This document shows, in pieces, positions 5,752 through 52,258 of a stretch of 64,000 nt of DNA; the stretch's first letter is position 1; each line of letters opens with the position of its first letter. A program made the translations under genes and the position numbers. The notes below the pieces were generated by a model. That model was not told the DNA's origin. It did not search any database and worked only from the letters and a program-made list of their open reading frames with translations. This DNA comes from Thermodesulfobacteriota bacterium. Its GTDB lineage: Bacteria > Desulfobacterota_D > UBA1144 > Nemesobacterales > Mycalebacteriaceae. The stretch lies in contig OZ242184.1 in the NCBI GenBank assembly GCA_965205855.1, positions 886,570 through 950,569 on the forward strand, in the 5' to 3' direction.

Positions 5752-6837
5752 CTACACATTGAAACGAAAAAGCATAATATCCCCGTCACAAACTTCATAG
5801 CCTTTTCCCTCGGCTCTCATTTTTCCGGCTTCCTTCGCCGCCGATTCGGAACCGGCGACGATGAAATCTTCATATTTTATTGTTTCCGCCCTTATAAAAC
5901 CTTTTTCAAAATCGGAATGAATAACTCCCGCCGCCGCAGGCGCCTTTGTTCCCAGTTTTATAGTCCACGCCTTCACCTCCTTGGGTCCGGCGGTGAAATA
6001 GGTTATAAGTCCCAAGCCTTTGTAAGCCGCTTGCACAAGTTTTTCAAGTCCTGTTCTGTCAATGCCCATTTCATTGAAGAACTCTTCCCTTTCTTCAAGG
6101 TCAAGCCCTGATATTTCTTCTTCTATTTTCGCGCAGATGTTCACTACGGGGCTTGAGGTTTTCTGTGCGTGAAGTTCCACCTGTTTTGAAAATTCGGACT
6201 CCCGCGCCACATCATCAATATTGCACACATACAAAACCGGCTTCGCGGTCAGCAAAAAAAGTTGCTGTTCTTTCTCAATCTCAAGCCAATCACAATGGCC
6301 GCGGACGGAATTGCCGTCTTCAATAAACTCTCTCAGTTTTCTAACATCAGACAGCTGTTTTTTTATGTCTTTGTCGCCGCTTTTGGCTTGCGTAGCAAGT
6401 TTCTGTTCTTTTTTTTCCAGAGTTTCAAGATCTTTCAATATCAGTTCGGTCTCAATTGTCTCAATGTCACGCCCGGGATTCAAAACGCCGTCAACATGCG
6501 TAACATCACCGTCCTCAAAACATCGGACGACATGAACTATTAAATCCATCTCGCGTATATGAGAAAGAAAAGCGTTGCCCTTGCCCTTGCCCTCGGACGC
6601 GCCCTTCACAATTCCCGCGATGTCAACAAACTCGATAAAAGCCGGAACCATTTTTTCGGGTTTCACAAATGACTGTATTTTTTCAAGCCGCTCGTCAGGA
6701 ACCGCAGCAACACCGATGTTCGGCTCTATTGTGCAGAAAGGGAAGTTTGCTGCTTCCGCGTTTCCGTTAGAAAGAGAGTTGAAAAGTGTTGATTTGCCCA
6801 CATTGGGAAGCCCTACCACGCCGCATTTGAGTCCCAT
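5752..6837 (-). CDS. ychF: redox-regulated ATPase YchF (Obg-family GTPase-like)
   Basis: MGLKCGVVGLPNVGKSTLFN P-loop at the N-terminus and a TGS/YchF C-terminal domain. The longer ORF start at 6915 overlaps tRNA-His, so the ATG at 6837 is used. Confidence 0.9.
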   Translation of the reverse strand: MGLKCGVVGLPNVGKSTLFNSLSNGNAEAANFPFCTIEPNIGVAAVPDERLEKIQSFVKPEKMVPAFIEFVDIAGIVKGASEGKGKGNAFLSHIREMDLIVHVVRCFEDGDVTHVDGVLNPGRDIETIETELILKDLETLEKKEQKLATQAKSGDKDIKKQLSDVRKLREFIEDGNSVRGHCDWLEIEKEQQLFLLTAKPVLYVCNIDDVARESEFSKQVELHAQKTSSPVVNICAKIEEEISGLDLEEREEFFNEMGIDRTGLEKLVQAAYKGLGLITYFTAGPKEVKAWTIKLGTKAPAAAGVIHSDFEKGFIRAETIKYEDFIVAGSESAAKEAGKMRAEGKGYEVCDGDIMLFRFNV

Positions 6838-9100: not shown

Positions 9101-11047
9101 ATGAAAAGTAGCATATTCAAGAATATATTCATCTGGTTGCTGATTTTTGTCGGTCTCGTAGCGTTCTATCAGTTCAGGGGAATGCCGCAAGACAAGCCGC
9201 TGGAAATATCCTACAGCGATTTTCTCGCCCATGTTGAAAACGGGAAAATCAGCAGTGTGGAAATAACCCTTGAAGATAGCTTAATTCAGGGCTCATTTAC
9301 AAAAGGATTTATCCCGCTGCAAGAGGCATTGCCTGAAAACGCCGCGTCTGTACAAGGCGCTGAAGCGAACAAAACCGACCGGTCTGTTACTTTCAAAACA
9401 TTCGGTCCCGTGGAAGAGAACTACCTGCTTCAAACTCTCAGAGAAAACGGAGTAAAGTTCAGTTACGCGAAAAATTCGGGTAGAAGCTTCGGGCAGATTT
9501 TAATAAGCTGGGGACCGTTTCTGCTCCTTATAATACTTATGGTTTTCTTTCTGCGCCAGATTCAGGCAGGCGGCTCAAAAGCGATGTCCTTCGGCAAGAA
9601 CAAGGCTAAAAAACTGGACACTGAAAACAACAAAATAACATTTGACGATGTGGCGGGAATCGAAGAAGCAAAAGAGGAAGTCGGAGAGATAGTAGACTTT
9701 CTGCAAAACCCGGCAAGGTTCACTTCAATAGGAGGCAAAATTCCGAAAGGGGTGTTGCTTGTTGGGCCCCCCGGAACGGGAAAAACCCTTCTCGCCCGCG
9801 CGATTGCGGGAGAAGCCAACGTTCCATTTTTTCTGATAAGCGGAAGTGATTTTGTTGAAATGTTTGTTGGCGTCGGCGCTTCAAGGGTCAGAGACCTTTT
9901 CGCTCAGGCGAAAAAGAGTGCTCCATGCATAATATTTGTGGATGAACTTGACGCGGTCGGCAGGCACAGAGGAGCTGGTCTTGGAGGAGGCCATGATGAA
10001 AGGGAGCAAACCCTCAACCAGCTTCTTGTGGAAATGGACGGCTTTGAAAACAACAGGGGAACAATAGTTATGGCGGCAACAAACCGTCCCGATGTTCTTG
10101 ACCCTGCGCTTCTGCGTCCGGGGAGGTTTGATAGACAGATAGTTGTTTCCAGACCCGACTTCAAAGGACGCAAAGCCATACTTCAGGTTCACTCAAGAAA
10201 AACCCCTCTGCAAACAAATGTGGACCTTGAGGTAATAGCACTGTCAACTCCGGGGTTTTCCGGCGCGGATCTTGAAAACCTTGTGAATGAGTCGGTTCTT
10301 CACGCTGCGCGCAATGGAAACAAGATGGTCTCAATGGAAGACTTTGAATACGCCAAGGACAAAATAATGATGGGTTCGGAAAGAAAAAGTCTTGTCATAA
10401 ATGAGAAAGAGCGGAATATCACTGCTTACCACGAAGCCGGACACGCCGTGGTCGCAAAACTCACTCCGGGCGCGGACCCAGTGCACAAGGTAACAATTAT
10501 TCCGCGTGGAATGGCTCTCGGCCTCACGCAGCAGATACCCAAAGAAGACACATACACACAGTCGCGCTCTTATCTGAACACTTTGATAATGGTGCTGCTC
10601 GGCGGGCGCGCAGCGGAAGAAATCATCTTCGGAGAACGCACAAGCGGAGCCGGAAACGATTTGAAAAGAGTTACCGAAATAGCCAGAAAGATGGTCTGCG
10701 AGTGGGGAATGAGCGAAAAAATAGGCCCCATATCACTCGCGAAAACCGAAGAGCAAGTTTTCCTCGGAAAAGAGTTTGCGAAAGCATTCGACCACAGTCA
10801 GCGGACCGCCGAAAAAATAGACATGGAAATCAAAGCGATTGTGGAAATGAACTATGGGAAAAGCAAAAGGGTTTTGAACAACAACATAGAACTGCTCAAA
10901 TCGGTTGCCAAGAGGCTTTTAAAAAAAGAAAGCATCACCGGCAGGGAAATAGACGAAATAATGGAAGCCTCAAACCTTTTCGTCAAACATTTTAAAGACA
11001 GAAAATCCTCAGAAATGGAATCGGGGCCGCAACAAGCCCGCGCATGA
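9101..11047 (+). CDS. ftsH: ATP-dependent zinc metalloprotease FtsH
   Basis: Two N-terminal TM segments, AAA+ motifs [11 protein letters not shown] and IIFVDELDA, zinc site HEAGHAV. The ATG at 9101 (MKSSIF...) is preferred over the TTG at 9059. Confidence 0.95.
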
Positions 11048-46091: not shown

Positions 46092-46649
46092 TCACGGATT
46101 TTTTGAGTCAGTACTGTCTGAATTATTTGGCAAATTGATGATTTCAACAGGCACATTCCTTTTACCAACTGCAAGACCGACAGCGTAGTTACGGATAATA
46201 GTTTGATCCATTTCCATATCCGCATAGCCTTGTGGATAGTACGAACCCCTTAGAATTTCCATCTGTTCTACCTTAAAATCTAGCACCTTGGCCATTGAGC
46301 TAAGCATCTCCGTGAGCAATTCCATTTGCTCCTTGCCGAGTCGTTCATAGTGCGAACGAGAATCATTTTCTTCGTTAGGCCTCTTAGCATGCGTTTCACC
46401 ATAATGCTTGCGGAGTGCTGCCCATTTTTCTATAACTTCTTTATGCTTAACAAATTCTATCTCAACCAGATTAATGGCTCCGACATAATCAGGTGATAAA
46501 CGCGCATTTCGTGTACGCATTAACGTCTTGAATATATCCATTTTTCGCGCCTTTTGTTCGCGCCATCTGTCAAGAAGACCGTTAACCCAGACAGCTGCGC
46601 AAGGACCGATTAAGATGGCTGCAATGGTGATGATAGAATATGAATTCAT
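46092..46649 (-). CDS. hypothetical membrane-anchored protein (185 aa) between mod and res
   Basis: N-terminal TM helix SIITIAAILIGPCAAVWV, then a charged helical region. Visibly AT-richer than the flanking mod and res sequence. Start lies 2 nt after the mod stop, and its stop lies 1 nt before the res ATG. Confidence 0.6.
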   Translation of the reverse strand: MNSYSIITIAAILIGPCAAVWVNGLLDRWREQKARKMDIFKTLMRTRNARLSPDYVGAINLVEIEFVKHKEVIEKWAALRKHYGETHAKRPNEENDSRSHYERLGKEQMELLTEMLSSMAKVLDFKVEQMEILRGSYYPQGYADMEMDQTIIRNYAVGLAVGKRNVPVEIINLPNNSDSTDSKNP

Positions 46650-46651
46650 GT

Positions 46652-48115
46652 TTATCTTATACCCTCATATGGTAATTGGGCAAAAGTTATCCCCATCTCG
46701 GTTAATGCTTTTTGTCCCATGAATTTGTGAGTGGCGAACACCACCGCGGTTTTCTTTTTTGCCTTGGCCTGTTTGGCGATGCGTTCGGCGCGGGTGCTGT
46801 TCAAAGCGGAATCCGCACTGCGCAGAAAATCAAGGTTCGGCTCGTAGATCAGGTAAAACATTTTGTCACCTGCTTCATAAAATAAACCGTCTTTGCCACG
46901 CCTTGTTTTCGGGTTGAGTTTATGCGGCGATTGTCCGCTTGCGGTATAGATCAGATGGCGGGCAAAGGTTTCATAGCCCGGCAGGTTCCTGCCGGTGAGC
47001 ATTTTTTCAATGCTGATTTCATCGCCCAGTGTGCAATAGGCAAAACTGCCGCCCAGTCCGTTTTTTAGGTTCTCATCCTTTGCTTTTGGTATGCCCTTTA
47101 TCACACGGCGAACGCGCTCGGCGGTGATTTTGTCGGCGTAGTCTTCGCATTCCACCAAGATAAATTTGCGGTTGCCGCCGTCTTCCTTGTTCAGCGCAAG
47201 CACGGCGTGGGCAGTGGTGCCGGAACCGGCGAAGGAGTCGAGGATAATGGCGTTTTTTGTCGTTGCCAGTTGTAAAATCTTTTTCACAAGGGAAATTGGT
47301 TTGGGGTTTTGGAACTGATTAGAACCAAACACCGTCCTCAACTCGATTGTGCCGTTGGTTGTTGTACCTACATCATCCCACCAAGTGCTAGGCGTTAACC
47401 CCCTTCGGCGTGCCTCTGACAAAAAACGTTTGCGCTGAGGTCTGGAACTATTTCTCTTTCCGAATACGATTCTATTGTCTGCAAGAAGCTCCTCAAATTT
47501 GTTCAAATCGTTTTTCCAGCAATTACCTTCAGTGGGGTAAAATATTTCTTTTGTTTTAGGGTTTCTTATCGGATACATCTGATTAGGTCGAACCCCACCA
47601 GCCTCAAATGGATCCGCCTTCCATGGGCCTCTCGGATCATTATCAGGATTTTTGAATCCTTCTAAAATGGCAGGAAGTTTGAAATCTTTTCTAATGGTTT
47701 TTAATACATTCAGTTGTTTAGCATAAGCTATATTATGAGTGTGTGATATTGATACTAATGCAGGATTTGTAATTGATTTTGTGCTATGCCACACAAAATC
47801 TGCAACAAAATTCTCCTCCCCAAAAATCTCATCCATGACCATCCGCAGGCGGTGCTGTTCATTGTCGTCGATGGAAATAAAAATTACGCCATCTTCGGCC
47901 AGCAATTCTCTTAACAACTGCAATCTTGGCCACATCATGCACAGCCATTTGTCGTGCCGCTCCAGGTCTTCGCCATCCACCGGACTTTTGCCTTTCAGCC
48001 ACGCCTTCATCATCGGGCTGTTGACATTGTCGTTATAGACCCATTTCTCATTGCCGGTGTTGTAGGGCGGGTCGATGTAAATGCAGTTGACGCGGCTGGC
48101 ATAGCGCGGCAGCAA
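46652..48115 (-). CDS. mod: Type III-like DNA methyltransferase Mod (beta-class N6/N4), main frame downstream of a frameshift
   Basis: Motif IV IDPPYNTG precedes motif I DSFAGSGTT. The frame stays open upstream of the tracked TTG start up to the stop at 48203..48205 (..SFSEKWGGNPSLDDNLIIHGDNLHALKA). The N-terminal 37 codons lie in another frame (next feature). Confidence 0.85.
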   Translation of the reverse strand: MLPRYASRVNCIYIDPPYNTGNEKWVYNDNVNSPMMKAWLKGKSPVDGEDLERHDKWLCMMWPRLQLLRELLAEDGVIFISIDDNEQHRLRMVMDEIFGEENFVADFVWHSTKSITNPALVSISHTHNIAYAKQLNVLKTIRKDFKLPAILEGFKNPDNDPRGPWKADPFEAGGVRPNQMYPIRNPKTKEIFYPTEGNCWKNDLNKFEELLADNRIVFGKRNSSRPQRKRFLSEARRRGLTPSTWWDDVGTTTNGTIELRTVFGSNQFQNPKPISLVKKILQLATTKNAIILDSFAGSGTTAHAVLALNKEDGGNRKFILVECEDYADKITAERVRRVIKGIPKAKDENLKNGLGGSFAYCTLGDEISIEKMLTGRNLPGYETFARHLIYTASGQSPHKLNPKTRRGKDGLFYEAGDKMFYLIYEPNLDFLRSADSALNSTRAERIAKQAKAKKKTAVVFATHKFMGQKALTEMGITFAQLPYEGIR

Positions 48116-48150
48116 CGCCTTGAGCGCGTGCAGATTGTCGCCGTGGATAA

Positions 48151-48291
48151 TCAGATTGTCATCAAGGGAAGGGTTACCCCCCCATTTTTCGCTGAAAGAG
48201 ATTTTTTAGTGTCTATCTCAAGTGTCCTGGACGGAACAGTCAGGTGGTGCGCATAAATGAGTTGCTTCCCTTTGAAATCAATTGTCGGCAT
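48151..48291 (-). pseudogene. mod: 5' segment of mod in a different frame, separated from the main frame at a G7 tract
   Basis: The ATG at 48291 opens MPTIDFKGKQLIYAHHLTVPSRTLEIDTKKSLSAKN followed by the G7 run (plus-strand C7 at 48177..48183). As written, the frame ends at the TGA at 48151. One extra G joins it to the Mod main frame. Confidence 0.7.
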
Positions 48292-48448
48292 TGAAAACCC
48301 CGTAAATCAGTTTGATATTGGCTTTGAAGATACCCGATTTACTCCCCCAACCTAAACCCCTCAACCTCCCGATGCACCGCCCCTTCCCGTCTCAATTCAC
48401 TCTCCATCAAACAAACTCTTTCAGAAGCAAAACCAAGTTCAAACTGCG
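48285..48448 (-). repeat. direct repeat copy A: thpR(ligT) 3'-end fragment, downstream spacer and first 7 nt of mod
   Basis: Identical base-for-base, by manual alignment, to 51106..51269. Its inner end is truncated by the IS1380-family remnant. Confidence 0.9.
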
Positions 48449-48768
48449 CCCGCGGTGACATGGAGAACCGGATCAAGGATCAGCAGTTGGATTTGTTTGC
48501 GGATCGCACCTCTTGTCACCGCTGGTGGCCCAACCAGTGCCGGCAGTTGCTGTCAGGGTTGGCTTACACGTTGATTGAGGGATTGCGGCGCCTTGCACTA
48601 CAGGGCACCGAACTGGCCAAAGCCAGTCCTCACAGGATCAGGCTGACACTGCTTAAAATCGGTGCCGTGATCATCCGCAACACGCGCCGCATCCGCCTAC
48701 TGATGAGCAGTGCTTATCCCCATCAGGCGTTGTTCCGCACGGCAGCCTATCGGCTCAACTCCCCATAA
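48449..48768 (+). mobile_element. IS1380-family transposase C-terminal remnant (pseudogene)
   Basis: Encodes only ..ARGDMENRIKDQQLDLFADRTSCHRWWPNQCRQLLSGLAYTL..., which resembles the conserved C-terminal block of IS1380 DDE transposases. About 340 N-terminal residues are absent. Confidence 0.65.
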
Positions 48769-48959
48769 ACCCAACCCAGTGCTGCCCCGGCATGTTGATA
48801 AACAATGGGGGTAGGGGGAGTTGCGCCCGAAATCTGTGAACAACGAAAGAATTGATCAAAGAACAGGCAACTGCATCATATGATGCATCGACAGGGATGG
48901 CGCTACCGAAAAATCGACCACCACCGCTTCACTCATGAAATATCCGGGATAGTCTCGCT

Positions 48960-50099
48960 TTATTTTCGGATGAGAAACAGAAATTCTTTATTCGGATCGC
49001 TGGATTCCCGCAACCACTCATTTGTCCATTTCATGGCGGCCATCACATTTTTTTTATACTCAATTTTTGCGCTATCCACAATTTCTCCGTTACGCGTTAT
49101 CACCTCGTTTAATTCCTCCGCGGTTGCTCGTCCACCGGAACTGTAAGAGAGCAAGATCCATCGGCAAGGAGTTTCCTTCAGCAAACGCTCTATGGCTTCC
49201 ACCACAACCAATCGTCCTGATTTGCTTCTACGAAATTCCTCGAACACTGAAGTCGCCACTTTATCGGATGTGTCTTTTCTGCGGAGGGACTTGCCAAATA
49301 GCACGGGATGATCATTTTTACATATGGTCGTCCACAAATGATAATATGAAGCGTACCGAACCCTTGAAGGTGGCATTTTTTCATTGTTTGACCCATACGG
49401 AGGATCAAAATAAGCAAGATCGGCGTCCGCTTCGGGAAGTACCTTAAAAACATCACCACACAGCACCGTGTTTTCGATTTCATTTTTCCACAACCGTGGC
49501 ACTTTCAATTGTAAATTTTTGAATGAACGCGGCGACCAATCTTTTAAATAAGAAACAAAATGACCAAGAGTACTGTCTATCTCATTCAACCCTAAAATCA
49601 GGCTTGTCAATGCCACACTTTTGGAAACGTCATCCAGCATCAAGGCATCGATCTCTCTCCTGATTGCATCAAGTTTTCTTGTATTTTTTTTCTGCCAAGG
49701 CTTTTTGGTTCCATCCTTCTGAATAGCATTATGGCAAGTTCCAGAGCGAACATCACCACCGTAATTCTCAGTAAACCATCCGTCTTCCGGAGGAAGCGAA
49801 TTTAAATGATCAATAAGAGGTTGGTATATTTTCGGGTTTTTTAAGTTTTTCAAATAGCACGTGGCAAAAATTCTTGACCATTCGGAAATATCATTTGATA
49901 CCACGCGATATCCTGCTTGTGCAAAAGATTGACTTACTCTGGTGGAGCCTGAAAAACCGTCAAAAATGCTTTTTGCTCCGGTCTGTTTTGACAGATTAAA
50001 AATATGTGGAAGCAGTTTCAGTTTTGAGCCTGCGTAATTGATGCCTTCGGTTTTTGGAACATCAATCCAATCACGAAAAATTTGAACTTGCCCTTGCAT
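48960..50099 (-). CDS. adenine-specific DNA methyltransferase, alpha-class (Dam / D12-like)
   Basis: 379 aa. NYAGSKLKLL, motif I FDGFSGS, motif IV FDPPYG, and a C-terminus ending in EFLFLIRK typical of D12-class enzymes. Confidence 0.8.
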   Translation of the reverse strand: MQGQVQIFRDWIDVPKTEGINYAGSKLKLLPHIFNLSKQTGAKSIFDGFSGSTRVSQSFAQAGYRVVSNDISEWSRIFATCYLKNLKNPKIYQPLIDHLNSLPPEDGWFTENYGGDVRSGTCHNAIQKDGTKKPWQKKNTRKLDAIRREIDALMLDDVSKSVALTSLILGLNEIDSTLGHFVSYLKDWSPRSFKNLQLKVPRLWKNEIENTVLCGDVFKVLPEADADLAYFDPPYGSNNEKMPPSRVRYASYYHLWTTICKNDHPVLFGKSLRRKDTSDKVATSVFEEFRRSKSGRLVVVEAIERLLKETPCRWILLSYSSGGRATAEELNEVITRNGEIVDSAKIEYKKNVMAAMKWTNEWLRESSDPNKEFLFLIRK

Positions 50100-50776
50100 T
50101 ATGTAACTTTAAAGCGGGAAGCCTGCTTGAGTCTAACAATATCATCTTTCACTTTTGCAAGAGCCTCATTCTGGCCGAAATCAGAAGAAACAAGCGCGTG
50201 AGAAAATAGTTGGACCAAGATAGGATTGTGAGAATAATCAACCCATCCATTGGTTATGCTATCAAAATAGTTTAAACCACTTTTTGTATGAGTCCAAAGC
50301 CCTCGCTGGAGGGCATTGGCGGTTGCGCTTCCATAACGCACCTCGCAAATATAAGAATCGCTTGCATCGTAGAAACGATATACTGGGTGCTTTCTACCTT
50401 TCTTTTTTGTTTCTTTTACTATTTTCACCGTTTCAGTTTCAGCGCGGTGGTAATCGAAGACAAGAATATTACACTGTCGATTTTTTTCGTCATAAATTAA
50501 TGGCAAAACATTTACATTGTAAAAATCCGAGAAAGCGGGGTCGGCAAGCACTCGTTGTACATTTTTCTTGCCCACTATTTCATCCCCCTCTTGTGCCAAT
50601 CTCGGAAACATTTTGAAATTCTTGTCGGTTGAAAGTTGAAGGGGACCATCACCATACGCTTTGATGCTAACAGGAAATTCAGCTTCGGTTACTTCATTTA
50701 TTATTTTGATGTCTTCTTCCCGAGATTTGGCTCTGTATAAATCTTTGCCAACATGGATCGAGCGAAAATCATACAT
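50099..50776 (-). CDS. hypothetical protein, candidate Type II restriction endonuclease partner of the Dam-like methylase
   Basis: 225 aa. Its stop overlaps the methylase start. Possible PD-ExK-like element (FYDASDSYICEVRYG). No family recognised. Confidence 0.4.
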   Translation of the reverse strand: MYDFRSIHVGKDLYRAKSREEDIKIINEVTEAEFPVSIKAYGDGPLQLSTDKNFKMFPRLAQEGDEIVGKKNVQRVLADPAFSDFYNVNVLPLIYDEKNRQCNILVFDYHRAETETVKIVKETKKKGRKHPVYRFYDASDSYICEVRYGSATANALQRGLWTHTKSGLNYFDSITNGWVDYSHNPILVQLFSHALVSSDFGQNEALAKVKDDIVRLKQASRFKVT

Positions 50777-50777
50777 A

Positions 50778-50987
50778 CTACTGGTTGATAAATTCGGCTA
50801 TGGCGATTTCTGCCAAATCTCCATGTGTTTTATTTCCAATGAGGCGCATGGTGAAAATGTTGCTCAATGTCAAGATTATTAAATCCGGGCGTTTACTCGC
50901 AAGAAGCTTCAATCTCGAGATGAAATCTTTATATGGATCATTTTTCATGTTTTTCGTTTGATGCCTCTGTTTTGGTATTTTTATCAA
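50778..50987 (-). CDS. hypothetical 69-aa ORF, separate small gene or detached N-terminal part of the 225-aa ORF
   Basis: It ends at a TAG one nt before the ATG of the next ORF (CAG TAG T ATG). It is in a different frame from that ORF. Confidence 0.3.
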   Translation of the reverse strand: MIKIPKQRHQTKNMKNDPYKDFISRLKLLASKRPDLIILTLSNIFTMRLIGNKTHGDLAEIAIAEFINQ

Positions 50988-51105
50988 CCTTCATTTTTCA
51001 GATCGTCGCATGAGCTTGGGTTGAGATGATTCGGTAGCGTCATCGAGAATTCATGTGTATCAATTGCTGTTCAAGTTTAACCCGTTTTGCCTGTAAATCA
51101 CCCAA

Positions 51106-51335
51106 TCGGCATTGAAAACCCCGTAAATCAGTTTGATATTGGCTTTGAAGATACCCGATTTACTCCCCCAACCTAAACCCCTCAACCTCCCGATGCACCG
51201 CCCCTTCCCGTCTCAATTCACTCTCCATCAAACAAACTCTTTCAGAAGCAAAACCAAGTTCAAACTGCGGCAATTCGGGTAGCTTCATCCTTTTTTTTAT
51301 CCACCCTATCGTAACGTGCGACATAAAATCCCGTT
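51106..51335 (-). repeat. direct repeat copy B: longer thpR(ligT) 3'-end fragment, spacer and first 7 nt of mod (ATGCCGA)
   Basis: 51106..51269 is identical to copy A. 51129..51335 aligns without gaps to the intact thpR 3' end (52052..52258) with about 18 mismatches by manual count. It keeps an open frame (..SHVTIGWIKKRMKLPELPQFELGFASERVCLMESELRREGAVHREVEGFRLGE*). Confidence 0.85.
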
Positions 51336-51905: not shown

Positions 51906-52052
51906 TTAAACTAAGCAGAGTTTCAAGATATTTTCCGGCATCGGCGGCGTTTTGAGCGCTGCATAAGCAAGTCTCGGTATTAACTCGCACAAATCAAAGC
52001 GACGATTGAAACGATACTGAAATTCTGACAAATAACGCTGTGCGTATTTTTC
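51906..52052 (-). mobile_element. IS1595-family transposase C-terminal remnant (pseudogene)
   Basis: The minus strand encodes EKYAQRYLSEFQYRFNRRFDLCELIPRLAYAALKTPPMPENILKLCLV*. The YL.EF.YRFNRR block is the conserved C-terminal signature of ISXO2-like/IS1595 transposases. It abuts repeat copy C directly. Confidence 0.65.
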
Positions 52053-52258
52053 AGTTTGATATTGGCTTTGAAAATACCCGATTTACTCCCCCAACCTAAA
52101 ACCCTCAACCTCCCGATGCACCGCCCCTTCTCGTCTCAATTCACTCTCCATCAAACAAACCCTGTCAGAAACAAACTCAAGTTTAAACTGCGGCAATTCG
52201 GGCAGTTTTATCCTTTTTCTTATCCGCCCTATCGTAATGTGTGGTATAAAATCCCGTT
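52052..52258 (-). repeat. direct repeat copy C: 3' end of the intact thpR gene plus 31 nt downstream
   Basis: Homologous to copy B over 207 nt (about 91% identity by manual count) and to copy A over its shorter extent. Confidence 0.85.

Follow-up and report, generated by a model that had tools for sequence, protein, structure and literature searches.

A single extra base divides the endonuclease gene of an imported Type II restriction-modification cassette, probably leaving a solitary adenine methylase

The window (the whole 64-kb stretch of DNA that was analysed) carries on its minus strand a methylase gene (M) and, upstream of it, two open reading frames (ORFs) of 225 and 69 aa, all three lying where the initial annotation had placed them (Table 1). 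The two short ORFs are in different frames, and a single base (50777) separates the TAG of the 69-aa ORF from the ATG of the 225-aa ORF, whose own stop overlaps the methylase start as had been described (TAATG, with base 50099 common to both). By homology, the protein encoded upstream of M starts at ATG 50948, and the 13 codons that precede it in the 69-aa ORF, from the TTG, form a leader without homology. The restriction gene (R) so delimited and M are adjacent and co-oriented.

Table 1. Coordinates in the window of the cassette, its genes and conserved residues, and the flanking repeats
Feature	Position	Strand	Remark
Direct repeat, copy A	48285..48448		thpR/ligT 3' end plus spacer, to the first 7 nt of mod
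Insert between the repeats	48449..51105		2,657 nt
IS1380-family transposase remnant	48460..48768	plus	C-terminal part (~100 aa); inside the insert, adjoins the methylase gene
Cassette	48950..51114	minus	R, M, 127-nt leader and 75 nt of a foreign valS 3' end
Methylase ORF (M)	48960..50099	minus	379 aa
DPPYG of M	49406..49392	minus	aa 232-236
FDGFSGS of M	49964..49944	minus	aa 46-52
NYAGSK of M	50039..50022	minus	aa 21-26
R, putative pseudogene	50099..50948	minus	282 codons after removal of one base; stop TAA at 50101..50099
225-aa ORF, C-terminal fragment of R	50099..50776	minus	codons 58-282; begins at the family's native internal Met58
NALQRGLW block of R	from 50317	minus	invariant; in the C-terminal fragment
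K96 codon	50662..50660	minus	in the C-terminal fragment
S94 codon	50668..50666	minus	in the C-terminal fragment
D79 codon	50713..50711	minus	in the C-terminal fragment
Lesion	50778	minus	single added base; coding strand G, plus strand C
N-terminal fragment of R	50778..50948	minus	codons 1-56 plus TAG; most of the three-helix region, with invariant G43 and E47
69-aa ORF	50778..50987	minus	TTG start at 50987; stop TAG at 50780..50778
E47 codon	50810..50808	minus	in the N-terminal fragment
valS 3'-end fragment	51040..51114	minus	matches the final 75 nt of the twin's valS
Direct repeat, copy B	51106..51269		164/164 identical to copy A

The 69-aa and 225-aa ORFs are halves of one restriction-enzyme gene, split by a single base. 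Homologues are single chains (281-283 aa) that read unbroken across the junction in alignment (...AEFINQYMYDF...), residues 14-69 of the 69-aa ORF being colinear with their residues 1-56, and the homology extends to hundreds of proteins at E = 1e-115 and lower, far beyond chance. The base at 50778 changes the Tyr57 codon from TAT to TAG-T, which both introduces a stop and shifts the downstream frame by +1, so that the R frame is not intact as sequenced; the window reads CAGTAGTATGTATG where a closely similar cassette from a metagenome (the twin, described below) reads CAGTATATGTATG, and no other gap occurs in their alignment, which spans 2,165 nt with 98.7% identity. Without the extra base the region reads CAGTATATG, and the repaired translation, at 282 aa, has the length most common in the family. 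The initial annotation had weighed one broken gene against two genes, and the former was borne out with two corrections: a single inserted base yields both the frameshift and the stop that it had listed separately, and the repaired length is 282 aa instead of ~295 aa, the true start being the ATG given above. Its other prospect, that relatives of the two pieces would prove to be always-separate, non-nuclease proteins, does not agree with homologues that are single polypeptides with a predicted nuclease fold. A small ORF ahead of an R gene often encodes a controller (C) protein, and the 69-aa ORF does have its own possible start codon; even so, two separate genes, a 69-aa C protein followed by a 225-aa endonuclease, are extremely improbable in view of that colinearity, which makes the small ORF the N-terminus of R, the lack of a helix-turn-helix or other family match to it in Pfam and NCBIfam, and the finding that no intact locus examined has two genes in place of R. 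Programmed frameshifting was likewise discarded: CAG-TAG offers no slippery codon for a +1 shift, and the extra base is missing from the twin and from the intact homologues.

By sequence similarity, R is a member of a known, catalogued Type II restriction-modification (R-M) family. The repaired protein matched the PADLOC profile REase_II PDLC03568, labelled 'Type II restriction enzyme', over its full length (E = 6.7e-130 at 430 bits, its residues 2-278 aligning with positions 2-278 of a 281-position profile), which supersedes the view that the upstream ORF resembles no recognisable endonuclease. The protein collection searched contains ~3,700 members of the family, and 185,579 GTDB species genomes gave ~530 matches, in more than 15 phyla, with amino-acid identities of ~70% or higher among the closest loci listed; with its own PADLOC profile and a membership of this size, it does not fit the suggestion of a novel endonuclease. 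Neither the fragments nor the repaired protein matched any Pfam or NCBIfam model, the family having no model in either and no solved structure, and phmmer and profile searches of PDB sequences returned no chain matching R. Public records label the homologues 'hypothetical protein' only, and family signature peptides had no match in a full-text literature search. Searches of plasmids and phages by tblastn and of E. coli genomes by blastn gave no match.

A homologue 78% identical to R has a confident AlphaFold model, which contains the alpha-beta-beta-beta-alpha-beta core of the PD-(D/E)XK nucleases, with ThaI, NaeI, SwaI and BglI as its closest folds. We are confident that R has this predicted fold, in agreement with the original suspicion of a restriction endonuclease. 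Three residues, E47, S94 and K96, do not vary in the family alignment, and a fourth, D79, is near-invariant. E47 lies in a helix (41-57), D79 starts a strand (80-84) and S94-x-K96 lies in another (90-99), positions that would correspond to the canonical helix, strand 2 and strand 3, with Ser in place of the usual acidic residue of the third motif. From conservation and topology, E47...D79...S94-x-K96 is likely to be the active site of R, and we treat it as putative. The PD-ExK-like element proposed at first, DASDSYICEVRYG, did not hold up: E202 is replaced in distant homologues. As a catalytic motif it was rejected, since it lies in a late strand (199-204), off the canonical positions. The break falls where the N-terminal helices (5-57) give way to strand 61-65 and separates E47 from D79, S94 and K96.

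M has the D12-class layout noted at the outset, with NYAGSK, FDGFSGS (SAM-binding motif) and DPPYG (catalytic motif) all present, and matched Pfam PF02086 (MethyltransfD12) at 80.9 bits (cut-off 22; E = 1.6e-22) and PADLOC MTase_II PDLC03342 over its full length (E = 6.9e-162). The term 'Dam-like' does not apply in the strict sense: M scored 17 bits against the TIGR00571 cut-off of 114.85, only a 33-residue stretch around DPPY aligned, and phmmer of M against PDB sequences gave no match, solved Dam, T4 Dam and DpnM included. Far under the subfamily cut-off, a Dam orthologue was rejected, and judged from these motif and profile matches M is an intact D12/alpha-type N6-adenine methyltransferase. 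It shares 99% identity with the methylase that the twin cassette encodes (6 synonymous and 2 non-synonymous codon differences), and its homologues carry only a generic 'DNA adenine methylase' label or a transferred 'FokI'.

The coupling of R and M that had been proposed from their overlap recurs across genomes, with R followed directly by an orthologous 379-aa D12 methylase in 78 of 80 GTDB loci and the R stop and M start overlapping by 4 or 1 nt in 69/81 loci. Palindrome counts in 0.89 Mb of carrier loci, made as a guide to the recognition site, showed mild depletion of all palindromes, none of which stood out, and a promoter and terminator scan found sites no more numerous than in shuffled sequence.

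The locus is quite probably a decayed Type II cassette, in which a genuine one-base insertion has killed R and M has stayed intact and solitary. One competing explanation is a sequencing or assembly artefact, in which the extra base would be a consensus error and R an intact 282-aa enzyme of a functional R-M system. In its favour, only one base has been inserted; R shows no other damage and matches its intact counterpart in the twin (P0121) at 98% identity, with most differences synonymous (8 against 5 non-synonymous); and a second apparent frameshift occurs 2.6 kb away in a Type III mod gene, at a G7 homopolymer (48177-48183), homopolymers being classic sites of long-read error. The insertion at 50778, however, lies outside any homopolymer (CAGTA-G-TATG), and the assembly is not riddled with indels, because long ORFs remain intact over 90% of the window. 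Several independent assemblies also carry nonsense or frameshift alleles of R, in some cases at the same codons, and both apparent lesions of the window fall within restriction-system genes, a category often inactivated or phase-varied in nature. We accordingly consider an artefact rather unlikely and infer a real mutation at 50778. The comparison with the twin gave no clear sign of relaxed selection in R, so the break, if real, would be recent.

Broken R genes were counted in 5/80 GTDB loci and in 7/108 metagenome loci (the 108, out of 120 metagenome copies, with a readable downstream stop). Four loci besides this one are broken at codons 55-57: Gln56 has become TAA in L053 and L084, R being otherwise completely intact in both; Tyr57 has become TAA in L082, plainly a decaying locus with further stops and M lost; and L085 has a 1-nt deletion at about codon 55. 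A stop inherited in common by L053 and L084 was discarded, each having closer intact relatives. These cases bear on the notion of a functional split enzyme, in which translation would reinitiate at Met58 and the 56-aa and 225-aa pieces would reassemble, perhaps into an attenuated nuclease. Only 1 nt separates the stop codon from the restart codon, Met58 is native and conserved, the break coincides with the helix-strand boundary, and the translation of R and M overlaps throughout the family. Against this, none of the 120 metagenome copies is broken at codons 55-57, the early stops in the 7 of 108 lying elsewhere; L082 has decayed further; no Shine-Dalgarno-like sequence precedes Met58; and the association of the fragments is a proposal only. 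The clustering itself is marginally significant (P about 0.02-0.07 in the unbiased sample), and two of the five break cases near Met58 came from a biased search route. We regard a working split enzyme as very improbable, and give equally little weight to the variant in which the restart at least keeps translation flowing into the coupled M. That R breaks are non-random and recur just before the conserved internal Met58 is itself unlikely, if less so. If true, the clustering could reflect selection for 'restartable' knock-outs that feed ribosomes into the coupled M, by which the cell would survive the loss of R, or alternatively a two-chain, attenuated but working nuclease; such a possible inactivation hot spot ahead of Met58 is the sole item of wider biological interest here.

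The surroundings of the cassette point to a foreign origin. The twin (L001 9835-11998, ENA metagenome ERZ25069296) shares 98.7% DNA identity with it on an unrelated contig, where the intact cassette is preceded by valS (valyl-tRNA synthetase), which ends at L001 9909 and whose 3' end the window copy has carried along. Outside the cassette, no similarity links the 64-kb window with the 20-kb flanks of the twin; ten housekeeping proteins of the window had no relative at 90% identity or more in the collections, and none of the window's proteins was found on contigs by exact look-up. The cassette has a GC content of 40.7%, lower than that of the window (48.8%) and of the flanks of the twin (59.7%). 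On these sequence comparisons the cassette was acquired horizontally, and recently. The insert is bounded by two perfect repeats of local sequence; similarity of copy B to the true thpR 3' end (52051-52258) runs on to about 51335 at ~91%, and the insertion spot has been struck more than once, since this makes a third, older repeat copy. The transposase remnant matched PF13701 (DDE_Tnp_1_4) at E = 8e-34 over profile positions 332-431 of 435 and NF033539 at E = 9e-24.

Collectively, the preferred reading is that the intact form was a small R-then-M Type II cassette with overlapping stop and start codons, its R a 282-aa PD-(D/E)XK endonuclease with the putative catalytic residues named above and its M an alpha-type N6-adenine methyltransferase that would protect the site of R. 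The base inserted in codon 57 would introduce TAG and a frameshift, cutting the N-terminal helices with E47 from the beta-sheet core, and R activity has most likely been lost. M, which we infer to be still active, is probably now a solitary methylase, the orphan that had been foreseen in the event of a broken R. R-M systems usually decay by this safe route, R being lost before M, as losing M first would be lethal. For this genome the annotation would be corrected to one R pseudogene and one active-looking solitary adenine methylase; for the large R family, the fold assignment and candidate active site would aid annotation, and the R enzyme could merit characterisation.

Several known systems resemble the locus. 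At the level of the family, R and M correspond in length to the unnamed PDLC03568/PDLC03342 pair (282 aa against 281 positions, 379 aa against 383) and in the R-then-M order of its genome loci; the R of the window differs in its one-base insertion, which makes a full-length protein impossible. The predicted fold of R is akin to the EcoRV-like branch, comprising R.ThaI (PDB 3NDH), NaeI, SwaI, BglI, SfiI, NlaIV, HincII and EcoRV, although sequence identity to ThaI and these relatives is only 9-13%. The third motif of R would be S-x-K where (D/E)-x-K is usual, as is the case in Cfr10I and NgoMIV. ThaI recognises CGCG, and the site of R must differ from it because the partner methylase modifies adenine. 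M shares with the D12 alpha group (Dam, DpnIIA, EcoRV and the N-terminal domain of FokI) the order X (NYAGSK), I (FDGFSGS), TRD, IV (DPPYG), with a target-recognition region of ~180 aa between FDGFSGS and DPPYG, and is ~100 aa longer than Dam. As an insertion, the locus recalls the R-M units inserted with long target duplication (Furuta, Abe and Kobayashi, NAR 2010; PMC2853133), a class of inserts under 20 kb flanked by direct repeats longer than 30 bp and defined without other mobile elements: the window likewise has perfect 164-bp repeats of local sequence around an insert of this size range with a GC content under that of the host, but its insert, unlike those of the class, contains the IS1380 remnant.

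An ORF scan returned three minus-strand ORFs at the same positions as the initial annotation. The 225-aa ORF and the methylase overlap, stop to start, in the sequence TAATG, and the 69-aa ORF ends in a TAG one base before the 225-aa ORF begins, in a different frame. A search with the 225-aa protein matched 3,673 relatives, and nearly all of the best 120 were single polypeptides of 281-283 aa. The homologues run uninterrupted across the window's junction (...GNKTHGDLAEIAIAEFINQYMYDFRS...); the window translates as ...AEFINQ-stop, and MYDFRS then follows one frame over. The nucleotides at the junction are CAG TAG T ATG versus an expected CAG TAT ATG, and therefore one inserted base, a coding-strand G at plus coordinate 50778, is the source of both the stop and the frameshift, a simpler lesion than the frameshift plus separate stop considered earlier. 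With base 50778 deleted and translation begun at ATG 50948, the product is 282 aa long; this is the commonest length among family members and replaces the earlier estimate of about 295 aa. P0121, an intact 282-aa member of the same 90%-identity cluster, is encoded on contigs of ENA metagenome ERZ25069296, where the cassette (endonuclease and methylase genes, leader and valS tail) was 98.7% identical to window positions 48950-51114 over 2,165 nt, the inserted base being the single gap. Since homologues read through the junction and this twin differs by one gap, of the two initial alternatives, two genes or a single frameshifted gene, the latter is correct, and the annotation of the locus can be corrected.

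Coordinates of features in the window and in loci carrying relatives (window positions unless a locus or contig is named)
Feature	Position	Strand	Detail
DUF6680 protein	46092-46649	minus	Pfam E=6e-47
Direct repeat, copy A	48285-48448		164-bp perfect repeat bounding the insert; 164/164 identical to copy B
IS1380 transposase, C-terminal remnant	48460-48768		inside the insert
Methylase ORF, 379 aa	48960-50099	minus	ORF scan
Endonuclease C-terminal ORF, 225 aa	50099-50776	minus	ORF scan
Endonuclease N-terminal ORF, 69 aa	50778-50987	minus	ORF scan
valS 3' end, last 75 nt	51040-51114		carried with the cassette; matches L001 (twin locus) 9835-9909
Direct repeat, copy B	51106-51269		as copy A
Membrane-like protein, 136 aa	51462-51872		in 37%-GC segment between repeats
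L053 break	6154-6175 (L053)		Gln56 to TAA; otherwise completely intact
L084 break	730-750 (L084)		Gln56 to TAA; otherwise completely intact
L082 break	6151-6172 (L082)		Tyr57 to TAA
L085 break	~1440-1500 (L085)		1-nt deletion at about codon 55
L001 and L002	256,827-277,675 and 2,353,810-2,374,658 (ctg24227)		the two occurrences of the twin's neighbourhood

The D12-class layout proposed for the methylase held: NYAGSK (residues 21-26), FDGFSGS (46-52) and DPPYG (232-236) were found, and the protein passed Pfam PF02086 for D12-class adenine methyltransferases (80.9 bits versus a cut-off of 22) and matched the PADLOC 'Type II methyltransferase' profile PDLC03342 (E=6.9e-162). The label 'Dam-like' did not survive, as the TIGR00571 score was 17 bits against a cut-off of 114.85 bits, and on this score a Dam orthologue was rejected. 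The methylase sequence matched no solved structure, and a palindrome-avoidance test over 0.89 Mb of carrier loci gave no recognition-sequence candidate. In a GTDB scan with one genome per species, relatives of the endonuclease occurred at 530 loci, the best 80 of which span more than 15 phyla at 69-79% amino-acid identity and are all carried by uncultured metagenome-assembled genomes. A methylase orthologue (56-79% identity) lay directly 3' of the endonuclease on the same strand in 78 of these 80, the remaining two being a contig end and a decayed copy, L082, and at 69 of 81 loci the overlap between endonuclease stop and methylase start was 4 nt or 1 nt. What was initially described as typical R-M coupling is thus conserved across the family.

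Sequence searches of Pfam, NCBIfam and PDB gave no match for the endonuclease, public records label its relatives 'hypothetical protein', and no paper came up in a full-text search with peptides characteristic of the family. The repaired protein nevertheless matched the PADLOC 'Type II restriction enzyme' profile PDLC03568 from end to end (E=6.7e-130); the suggested novel endonuclease is already catalogued under this dedicated profile, and the cassette is an ordinary Type II R-M system of a known kind whose endonuclease gene is split by one base. Across 38 sequences, E47, S94 and K96 were invariant, D79 was near-invariant, and a C-terminal NALQRGLW block was also conserved. In the AlphaFold model of a 78%-identical homologue, E47 lies within helix 41-57, strand 80-84 begins with D79, and strand 90-99 holds S94-x-K96; we infer from this model that these residues may form the canonical PD-(D/E)XK site layout, with Ser replacing the first acidic residue. 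The loose PD-ExK element first pointed out, DASDSYICEVRYG (residues 194-206), is probably not the catalytic motif, because it forms a strand further along the chain and distant homologues have another residue in place of its Glu. The family is large and has neither a Pfam nor an NCBIfam model; these results provide it with a fold and a candidate active site.

Codon 57, where the gene is interrupted, lies where the N-terminal helices end, and E47 is thereby cut off from D79, S94 and K96. Most likely, judging from the sequence, the endonuclease here is dead and the methylase next to it still works, now on its own; the methylase reading frame is intact, with 6 synonymous and 2 non-synonymous codon differences from the twin. 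For the endonuclease gene the corresponding counts are 8 and 5, which gives no clear indication of prolonged decay, and the break, if real, would be recent. Loss of the endonuclease before the methylase is the expected order of R-M decay. That the extra base is merely a consensus error appears improbable: the neighbouring Type III mod gene is likewise apparently frameshifted, at a G7 run, but base 50778 lies outside any homopolymer and long intact ORFs make up 90% of the window. Programmed frameshifting is also unlikely, there being no slippery codon and the extra base being absent from the twin. It is conceivable that the two fragments form a functional split enzyme, because the native Met58 sits one base after the TAG; a dead endonuclease is still the preferred reading.

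Early stops recur in this family. Within the GTDB set, four loci had stops inside the endonuclease gene (codons 56, 57, 118 and 195) and in L037 a stop lay further upstream, around codon 21. Early stops were also present in 7 of the 108 genes of a metagenome sample. The breaks in L053, L084, L082 and L085 each directly precede the conserved Met58, near the window's break. From sequence comparison, those in L053 and L084 look independent because neither locus is the other's nearest relative. Of the 13 breaks in the unbiased sample, 3 fell within a two-codon span at this site, a marginal statistical signal (P about 0.02 if breaks are uniform, about 0.07 if restricted to nonsense-capable codons), and 0 of 120 metagenome copies were broken at codons 55-57. 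An inactivation hot spot at codons 55-57 is suggested, not established, and offers a lead; if true, selection could favour knock-outs that restart at Met58 and keep the coupled methylase translated. L082 (5989-6900, a Spirochaetaceae MAG), with three in-frame stops in the endonuclease gene and no methylase gene, is what remains of the same cassette after complete decay.

The cassette has a GC content of 40.7%, compared with 48.8% for the whole window and 59.7% for the twin's flanks, which the rest of the 64-kb window does not resemble. Because the cassette is near-identical to its twin while for ten housekeeping proteins of the window no relative reached 90% identity, the sequences indicate recent horizontal transfer. 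Cassette GC was below flank GC in 50 of the 52 fully flanked loci among L004-L083 (mean 48% versus 58%), and the identity across more than 15 phyla together with low GC fits a widely travelling cassette. The twin's 20-kb neighbourhood, with an intact cassette, occurs twice with only small differences on the 2.47-Mb contig ctg24227 (ERZ25069296), which would be explained by a large duplication or by an assembly that merged two strains. At twin locus L001 the 75-nt stretch carried with the cassette is the actual end of the valS gene preceding the endonuclease, and its GC is as low as that of the remaining cassette; it may be, therefore, that the element inserts into the 3' end of valS and provides a substitute tail.

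In the window, the cassette and IS1380 remnant form an insert of 2,657 nt. The direct repeats bounding it are copies of the thpR/ligT 3' end and its downstream spacer, and the genuine end of the gene, at 52051-52258, makes a third copy at about 91% identity. Similarity of copy B extends over 51106-51335. Between the three copies lie the Type II cassette and a short segment of 37% GC, and several insertions seem to have occurred at this site downstream of thpR. This spot adjoins a Type III R-M system, whose minus-strand mod gene (48151-48291 and 46652-48205) has a 46-aa N-terminal ORF (MPTIDFKGKQLIYAHHL...) and resumes in another frame as ...NPSLDDNLIIHGDNLHALKALLPRYASRVNCIYIDPPYNTGNE, the shift coinciding with the seven-G run at 48177-48183; possible explanations are phase variation, a pseudogene and a sequencing error in the homopolymer. 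The DUF6680 gene, between mod and res and overlapping the res start, may be an accessory of that system. As for known modes of R-M insertion, the described class 'insertion with long target duplication' (PMC2853133) is matched imperfectly, given the IS remnant within the insert and the lack of an empty site for comparison; the insert resembles that class in being an R-M system set between long direct repeats.
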